Virus record (IMG/VR): IMGVR_UViG_3300021387_000118
Coordinates: 141,168 to 205,167 of that record
Source: a virus
Strand: one strand, 5' to 3'
Length of the DNA: 64,000 nucleotides
The notes under the pieces were generated by a model. That model ran no database searches. It was given only the letters and a program-made list of their open reading frames with translations, and was not told the origin of the DNA. Made by a program: the position numbers and the translations under genes. Below, in pieces: positions 50,135 to 50,631 of the stretch. Position 1 is the first letter of the stretch. The number at the start of each line of letters is the position of its first letter.

Positions 50135-50631
50135 GTTTTAAAATATTGTAATTTTATAAGTTTCTAAAACTCTTGGTTTACTTGGGTCTGGAATACGCAG
50201 TTTTGGAATATTATAATTTTATAAGGTTCTAAAACTTTTTAGAATACTGAAAATATGCCCATATTGTTTTGGAATATTGTAATTTTATAAGGTTTTAAAA
50301 CGATGTACCCGGCAGATGAAGTCCAGATGTTGTTTTGGAATATTGTAATTTTATAAGGTTCTAAAATGATGTACCCAGCAGATGAAGCAGAAATGTTGTT
50401 TTGGAATATTGTAATTCTATAAGGTTCTAAAACATGGCGACACTGATCCGTAATAACATGAACGTTTTGGAATATTGTAATTTTATAGGGTTCTAAAACA
50501 TGGATGCCTGGTATTCGATTACAGATGAGGTTTTGGAATATTGGAATTTTATAGAGTTCTAAAACGACGAAAGTGAAGTCCATGAGTCCCATGATGTTTT
50601 GGAATATTGTAATTTTATAGAGTTCTAAAAC
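50135..50631 (+). CRISPR. CRISPR array: 8 x 36-nt repeats (GTTTTGGAATATTGTAATTTTATAAGGTTCTAAAAC), 7 spacers of 29-30 nt
   Basis: Repeats at 50135, 50200, 50266, 50332, 50398, 50464, 50530 and 50596. The first repeat is degenerate. The repeat termini GTTTTGGAA...TTCTAAAAC are mutually complementary. The 36/30 geometry is type II-like. Confidence 0.85.

Follow-up and report, generated by a model that had tools for sequence, protein, structure and literature searches.

IscB-type systems are the presumed ancestors of Cas9. In both IscB and Cas9 the end of the guide that adjoins the repeat is the TAM/PAM-proximal seed, and about 16-20 nt of the guide are used. CRISPR-associated IscBs, such as DelIscB, are derived from OMEGA systems (Altae-Tran et al., 2021, via PMC12660989). 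Mini-CRISPR arrays carried by viruses are used in inter-virus conflict (PMC6858448; review PMC11656645); they borrow the effector of the host, their repeats are identical to those of the host and their spacers mostly match related viruses (PMC6858448). In bacterial arrays, duplication accounts for 86% of repeated spacers and re-acquisition or independent insertion for about 2% (PMC11472070). The leader-repeat end of type II-A systems has the sequence ATTTGAG/GTTT (PMC5382924). CRISPR-associated IscB, phage-borne arrays and the duplication of spacers have each been described already, and the diverged twin spacer reported here is a small detail.

In this study, a window of 64,000 nt (positions 141,168 to 205,167 of the IMG/VR virus record IMGVR_UViG_3300021387_000118) was analyzed. 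It holds a phage-borne CRISPR-associated IscB locus of a known kind (Table 1). As in other CRISPR-associated IscB loci, a small effector is preceded by a non-coding RNA region made up of an array of repeats and spacers, an anti-repeat and a candidate omega-RNA-like scaffold, and no adaptation genes were detected nearby. In contrast to the named systems, the locus and its relatives are carried by large phages of the rumen and gut, the clade is only about 39% identical to a named bacterial IscB, and the arrays turn over from strain to strain. Like the virus-borne mini-arrays, this is a short viral array without an adaptation module, and by analogy its expected role would be the exclusion of competing elements. 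It differs from them in that effector and tracr-like RNA both come from the phage itself, and in that no spacer matched related phage sequence, a weak negative that covers about 40 loci with short flanks. A description of the rumen and gut phage IscB clade was not found in the literature searched, a search that did not extend to the key 2021 paper.

Table 1. Positions of the array, the two similar spacers and the adjoining RNA and protein features in the window.
Feature	Position	Strand	Description
CRISPR array	50135..50631	+	8 repeats, 7 spacers
Repeat starts	50135, 50200, 50266, 50332, 50398, 50464, 50530, 50596	+	
Spacer 3 (S3)	50302..50331	+	GATGTACCCGGCAGATGAAGTCCAGATGTT; frame 2 = MYPADEVQM
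Repeat 3 (R3), separating S3 from S4	50332..50367	+	private C36T, end AAAAT (vs AAAAC)
Spacer 4 (S4)	50368..50397	+	GATGTACCCAGCAGATGAAGCAGAAATGTT; frame 2 = MYPADEAEM
Loop 3' of last repeat	50632..50647	+	starts with family-conserved CTCAA(A/T)
Anti-repeat, tracrRNA-like	50648..50679	+	about 23 bp predicted duplex with repeat positions 13-36
Omega-RNA/HEARO-like scaffold	50685..50875	+	Rfam RF02033, 20.4 bits, E=0.1
IscB-family RNA-guided endonuclease	50923..52569	+	548 aa; PLMP/RRXRR, RuvC and HNH parts

The effector has the architecture of IscB, with PLMP/RRXRR, a split RuvC, an HNH and no REC lobe. It was recognized by Pfam PF14239 (RRXRR, 1.6e-37), with HNH in addition, and by the NCBIfam equivalog NF040563 guided_IscB (277.5 bits, cut-off 175). 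Its best PDB matches were IscBs (4e-27 to 3e-23); the only Cas9 match in PDB (1.9e-8) extended over the nuclease core, and a Cas9 with a REC lobe was not found. Alignment placed putative catalytic motifs at IDMG, HH...N and HHND, and RNA-guided, TAM-dependent DNA cleavage is the predicted activity. PADLOC detected no cas1 or cas2 in 62 ORFs of the window, each 100 aa or longer; the scan covered ORFs of that size within the window. A weak Cas1g/Cas4 match at 29848-30630 proved to be a Cas4/RecB-like nuclease.

The scaffold is strongly conserved in the family and lies upstream of iscB on the same strand. RF02033 was detected at the same position in relatives, with 53.6 bits (E=4e-8) in L009 and 44.6 bits (E=6e-6) in L005, all of these scores, including that of the window, being below the gathering score of 83. 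The predicted repeat/anti-repeat duplex has an energy of -26 to -28 kcal/mol and, after an internal loop, continues in a short lower helix with the repeat's 5' end; a cis fold with the last repeat is predicted, and trans pairing with the other repeats is possible. Compensatory changes were found in 7 of 14 predicted repeat/anti-repeat pairs across 12 loci, as expected of the anti-repeat of a CRISPR-associated IscB. In the consensus structure of the 12-locus alignment, with the repeat/anti-repeat helix included, they affect 25 of 50 pairs. For several consensus pairs, most if not all of the sequences have G-U, a pairing workable only in a plus-strand RNA. Because of these G-U pairs in conserved helices, and of the plus-strand HEARO matches, transcription of the plus strand is inferred, and the guide would therefore consist of a spacer followed by its repeat, as in the Cas9 crRNA and in DelIscB (PMC12660989). 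The same two observations led to the rejection of a minus-strand crRNA, a model that had been prompted by the II-A-like leader motif described below.

The genomic setting is that of a large phage. Of 93 window ORFs, 78 are on the plus strand, and the genes include those for DNA polymerase, primase/helicase, two RNA ligases, an NAD-dependent ligase, thymidylate synthase and several tRNAs. Contigs of relatives, which have a viral classification, are up to 221 kb long. Sample labels, together with AUXO01, point to a large sheep-rumen phage from the metagenome of Shi et al. (2014; PMC4158751) as the carrier. Rfam, but not ARAGORN, gave two further tRNA matches, at 18639-18754 (116 nt) and 18758-18883 (126 nt), of about 50 bits each; these may represent tRNA genes interrupted by introns or in another way, and they lie beside a tRNA cluster at 21-23 kb. 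The window also encodes an 805-aa protein with a Major Vault Protein shoulder domain (43641-46058; PF11978, 6.5e-13), and this same gene is found upstream of the array in the relative L028. A skipping-rope RNA (RF02924, 71 bits, E=3e-15) lies directly 3' of iscB in L009 (7761-7841); none was seen in the window.

The same locus layout was found in 20 IMG/VR loci and in further ENA, Logan and NCBI contigs from large phages of rumen and gut, with effectors 47-70% identical to that of the window, IscBs of about 515-580 aa and arrays of one to seven spacers. The 90% cluster of the window IscB has a single member, and a second strain of this phage was not found: exact-protein look-ups of the IscB returned the same array. 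A scan of IMG/VR for the repeat, made with a possible CRISPR of the host in mind, gave no match. The comparison with arrays of related phages that was proposed in the initial annotation as a source of the ancestral state could be made with effectors 70%, 66% and 63% identical at the closest; these loci have no spacer in common with the window, and no ancestral state emerged.

The array is composed of 36-nt repeats and spacers of 29-30 nt with a period of 65-66 nt. Its regular direct repeats (at least three, of 23-50 nt) and unique spacers of similar length are those of a CRISPR array, and none is expected in shuffled sequences. The 5'-most repeat is degenerate, with three mismatches, and every one of the eight repeats has its own one to three private changes; after the 5'-most repeat these are, in order, G14A, C31T, C36T, T20C, A25G, T15G+A25G+G26A and A25G+G26A. 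The T at the end of R3, to which attention had been drawn before, was indeed found instead of C, and it is not special, since all eight repeats are privately changed. With C36T in R3, a U-A pair would replace the C-A mismatch at the anti-repeat's 5' edge (50648).

An ENA scaffold of 105.8 kb and a JGI contig contain the whole array without a single base changed. A Logan contig is broken where S3 meets R3 and from R3 onward is identical to the window. An artefact in which an assembler had stacked two alleles is ruled out by the identical array in other assemblies, and also because R2, R3 and R4 carry distinct private mutations. Logan contigs of this phage family (L027, L068-L071) end exactly inside array repeats, with the consequence that such arrays are systematically missing from unitig assemblies of short reads. 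The array had been called dynamic. This suits the family, in which strains with about 98-100% identical flanks have entirely different spacers. For the window array it is not supported: no variation was seen between three assemblies, and the mutations in all of its repeats make it look old.

S3 and S4 are homologous variants of one 30-base sequence, far beyond chance. The initial annotation had given their coordinates and sequences exactly, and recounting confirmed the identity of 25 of 30 positions that it reported; the five mismatched positions of the spacers are 10, 21, 22, 23 and 25. All remaining spacer pairs within the array match at 3-13 of 30 positions, and among 1081 pairs formed from the 47 unique spacers of 29 related arrays the second-best pair reaches 15/30. 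Only 5 of 200,000 random pairs of 30-mers from the window reached 25/30. Low complexity, which would have been a trivial source of the similarity, does not apply because base composition is balanced (GC 0.43-0.50). The two units, 50266-50331 and 50332-50397, are adjacent, 66 nt each, in the same register and 88% identical.

The differences between the two spacers are unevenly distributed. Four of the five fall at positions 21-25, which is 6-10 nt from the repeat-proximal end, and under random placement at least four of five differences would lie within 5 nt with P=0.017. The 5' 20 nt thus contain one difference and the 3' 10 nt contain four; the divergence of the flanking repeats from each other would predict about 0.6 there. 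Transversions make up 2 of 5 spacer differences vs 1 of 7 private repeat mutations. Frame 2 of both spacers is open and starts with ATG, the changes being V>A, Q>E and one synonymous; in a simulation of this coding pattern with S3 and S4 alone the result was not significant (P 0.16-0.30).

Some positional regularities were observed in the spacers at large. An ATG begins at position 25 or 26 in five of the seven window spacers, and four of the seven have ATG or GATG as their first bases; across S3-S7 (50302-50595) the pattern is one of ATG at 1/2 with a second ATG at 25/26. The background is about 6% for each placement, and the counts in 50 spacers from related arrays are 4 and 1. Overall, ATG is 2-fold enriched (14 vs 6.2 expected, P=0.002). 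Of 50 family spacers, 42 end in T or A and 1 ends in C, a bias that may reflect acquisition or function adjoining the repeat.

According to the proposed function, which draws on structure, covariation and homology, the array would be transcribed on the plus strand, each spacer with its following repeat would pair with the anti-repeat and the omega-RNA-like scaffold, and the resulting guide RNA complex would load the IscB nuclease. Against the target of S4, the S3 guide would have four mismatches in the region that discriminates targets, and vice versa. The fifth difference, at position 10, would be at or outside the edge of the guide if about 16-20 nt are used. Since four of the five differences lie in the presumed seed, the two RNAs should not substitute for each other, and by analogy each should recognize a different variant of one target site.

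Several observations suggest that family arrays grow at the tracr-proximal end and, consequently, that S3 is older than S4: in family arrays it is invariably the 5' end that holds the degenerate repeat; strain pairs (L003/L018 and L020/L021) have their 5'-most spacers in common and different tracr-proximal spacers; the derived A25G and G26A occur in the window only in R5-R7, the closest relatives having A25 and G26; and a leader-like junction adjoins the tracr-proximal repeat. In the window this junction is AATTGAG/GTTTTAG on the minus strand (50627-50641). Nearly all of about 29 related loci have (A/C/T)TTTGAG/GTTTTG on the minus strand, with 5-7 of 7 matches (for example L019 5750-5765 and L072 1262-1276). 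The junction resembles the leader end of type II-A (PMC5382924), and the arrays appear to grow beside it. Unlike in type II-A, the motif is on one strand and the guide RNA and iscB are on the other, and no Cas9, Cas1, Cas2 or Csn2 was found. A type II-A-like integrase of the host may extend the arrays via the inverted ATTTGAG/GTTT, and S3 followed by S4 would then be a time-ordered re-sampling of one site by the phage after the competitor had changed its seed; this is speculation, and we consider it unlikely.

Comparison of strains shows what can become of spacers after acquisition. Homologous spacers of different strains are 0, 1, 3 and 4 nt apart at locus divergences of <=0.2, 0.33, 0.94 and 1.78%, respectively. 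Since the differences rise with locus divergence, spacers can persist and mutate in place, and those common to related strains change faster than repeats. Variant spacers that match at 26 of 30 positions are found in L005 (5702-5731) and in L006 (5702-5731) and L007 (5024-5053). The four differences are all transitions in one codon phase and are silent (NNDYRNLIL; P about 0.07), a putative coding pattern that hints at target tracking. The flanks of arrays are mosaic between strains, with 88-95% identity upstream beside 99-100% downstream. L029 and L030-L032, whose IscBs are identical, are one internal spacer apart, TGAGGAGGAGTAAAAACATGATGAAGAATA, which resembles a ribosome-binding site with a start codon. 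No exact duplicate spacers were found in 29 family arrays, no exact or less diverged duplicate of S3/S4 was found in relatives, and no relative carries these spacers.

Targets were searched for in several collections. Exact and codon-degenerate patterns, which admitted S3, S4 and all wobble variants, revealed no protospacer in IMG/VR, JGI metagenomes or 185,579 GTDB species genomes. The JGI metagenomes gave two matches only, with 60% GC and at chance level; in the GTDB species genomes the strict pattern gave 0 matches and the loose pattern 25, in unrelated genes and about the number expected by chance. No protospacer was found with blastn against GenBank phages or in IMG/VR scans of S1, S5, S6 and S7 individually; S2 was covered via whole-array BLAST. 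When 57 family spacers were compared with the window and about 40 related loci with short flanks, they matched their own arrays only. A match of an L020 spacer in the L004-L010 loci was discarded as low-complexity (21/30).

Individual candidates were also rejected. A 21-nt match to S3 in an IMG/VR sequence (L001) lies in a homologue of a Bacteroides-phage tail protein; about three such matches are expected by chance, and that tail family conserves YPxxEVP(G/A), which is absent from S3 and S4, and it was rejected as a target. The peptide MYPADExxM of the one NrdD gene matched in IMG/VR (L002, GGMYPADENDMP) recurs, as often as chance predicts, in about 25 gene families that are unrelated, and a homologue of that NrdD is absent from the window. 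For self-targeting, no DNA or peptide match of S3 or S4 in the window exceeded shuffled controls. The BLASTN comparison proposed in the initial annotation thus returned only chance-level matches, and the two spacers were not found to belong to unrelated loci. The specific polymorphic target that it had proposed remains hypothetical because no protospacer was found in the collections searched.

The two origins offered in the initial annotation, capture from diverged targets and duplication followed by drift, are the right candidates for these homologous spacers. Capture from two diverged alleles is slightly favoured, and tandem duplication followed by divergence is nearly as likely. In the former, one protospacer register would have been captured twice, from two diverged alleles of the target, which we put a little short of an even chance. 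The alleles would belong to a protein-coding gene of a competing mobile element, with MYPADE-VQ-M in one and MYPADE-AE-M in the other. S3 would have been acquired first and S4 next, as family arrays grow at the tracr-proximal end, and the acquisition machinery would be needed in trans because no cas1/cas2 was detected in the window. The clustering of the differences, the share of transversions, the length kept at exactly 30 and the open ATG frame argue for capture, as do the acquisition of spacers by the family and the lack of exact duplicates in its 29 arrays; the silent differences of L005 vs L006/L007 were also counted for it. Set against it are the searches, in which neither S3 nor S4 had a protospacer in any collection scanned, the missing cas1/cas2 in 62 window ORFs, and the adjacency of the pair, which tandem duplication predicts. 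The base rate in bacteria (PMC11472070) favours duplication, the array is old enough for drift, and the cross-strain spacer differences that scale with divergence fit inherited spacers drifting in place. The guide length and seed position were taken from other IscBs (PMC12660989), and this was also counted against capture. Very improbable, to our judgement, is an origin without an arms race, in which a single target genome supplied both S3 and S4 from a pair of similar sites, either internal repeats or paralogues. The ATG pattern of S3-S7 (1/2 and 25/26) could reflect a periodic or repetitive source of this sort, but there is no known target and, the ATGs aside, S5-S7 have no similarity to S3/S4 (7-13/30).

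A tandem duplication of a spacer-repeat unit, by slippage or unequal recombination between repeats and followed by mutation in place, is a serious possibility, albeit one that we would not bet on. Such changes would be neutral, one copy being a decaying redundant guide, or would result from selection for a seed matching an escape variant. S3 and S4 are adjacent and in the same register, as in the duplications found by SpacerPlacer (PMC11472070), where two adjacent units have homologous spacers and duplication prevails in bacteria; those duplicates are identical or nearly so, whereas between S3 and S4 17% of the sites are changed, with a cluster in the presumed seed. Duplication is consistent with the lack of adaptation genes in the window and with the private mutations of all repeats of an old array. 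In their 5' 20 nt the two spacers differ at 1/20 sites, similar to 2/36 between the flanking repeats, and 5/30 is reachable on rate alone because shared spacers track locus divergence and change faster than repeats. The TC/AA pattern could alternatively be read as two 2-nt indels around CAGA. However, the clustering of four of five differences is improbable under independent point mutations, the excess in the 3' 10 nt is far from the repeat rate, the transversion share is above that of repeat mutations, R2 (C31T), R3 (C36T) and R4 (T20C) have three different private changes and no derived variant in common, and exact duplicates are missing from the family arrays. Adjacency, divergence and the distinct private repeat mutations would be accounted for together if variants at the same array position in co-infecting strains had been put in tandem by unequal recombination. 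Variant spacers at corresponding positions do exist between sister-clade strains (L005 vs L006) and array flanks are mosaic; nonetheless, with no second strain found, a single-member IscB cluster and three identical assemblies, and with the first origin of the variants left unexplained, we rate such a merger as quite improbable.

If, as slightly favoured, S3 and S4 track two alleles of a target, they would pinpoint where a large rumen phage and another mobile element are still in conflict, and an IscB-type system would keep an updated memory without adaptation genes of its own. Should the integrase reading also be true, an adaptation-less, ancestor-type Cas9 system would have written a virus-versus-virus arms race into the genome of a virus. 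If the pair is merely a drifted duplicate, it would be an ordinary by-product of repeat slippage. The locus and its approximately 30 relatives offer a series of naturally occurring variants of repeat, anti-repeat and scaffold, together with many different spacers, which is useful for studies of the evolution from omega-RNA to CRISPR array and for the mining of compact editors.
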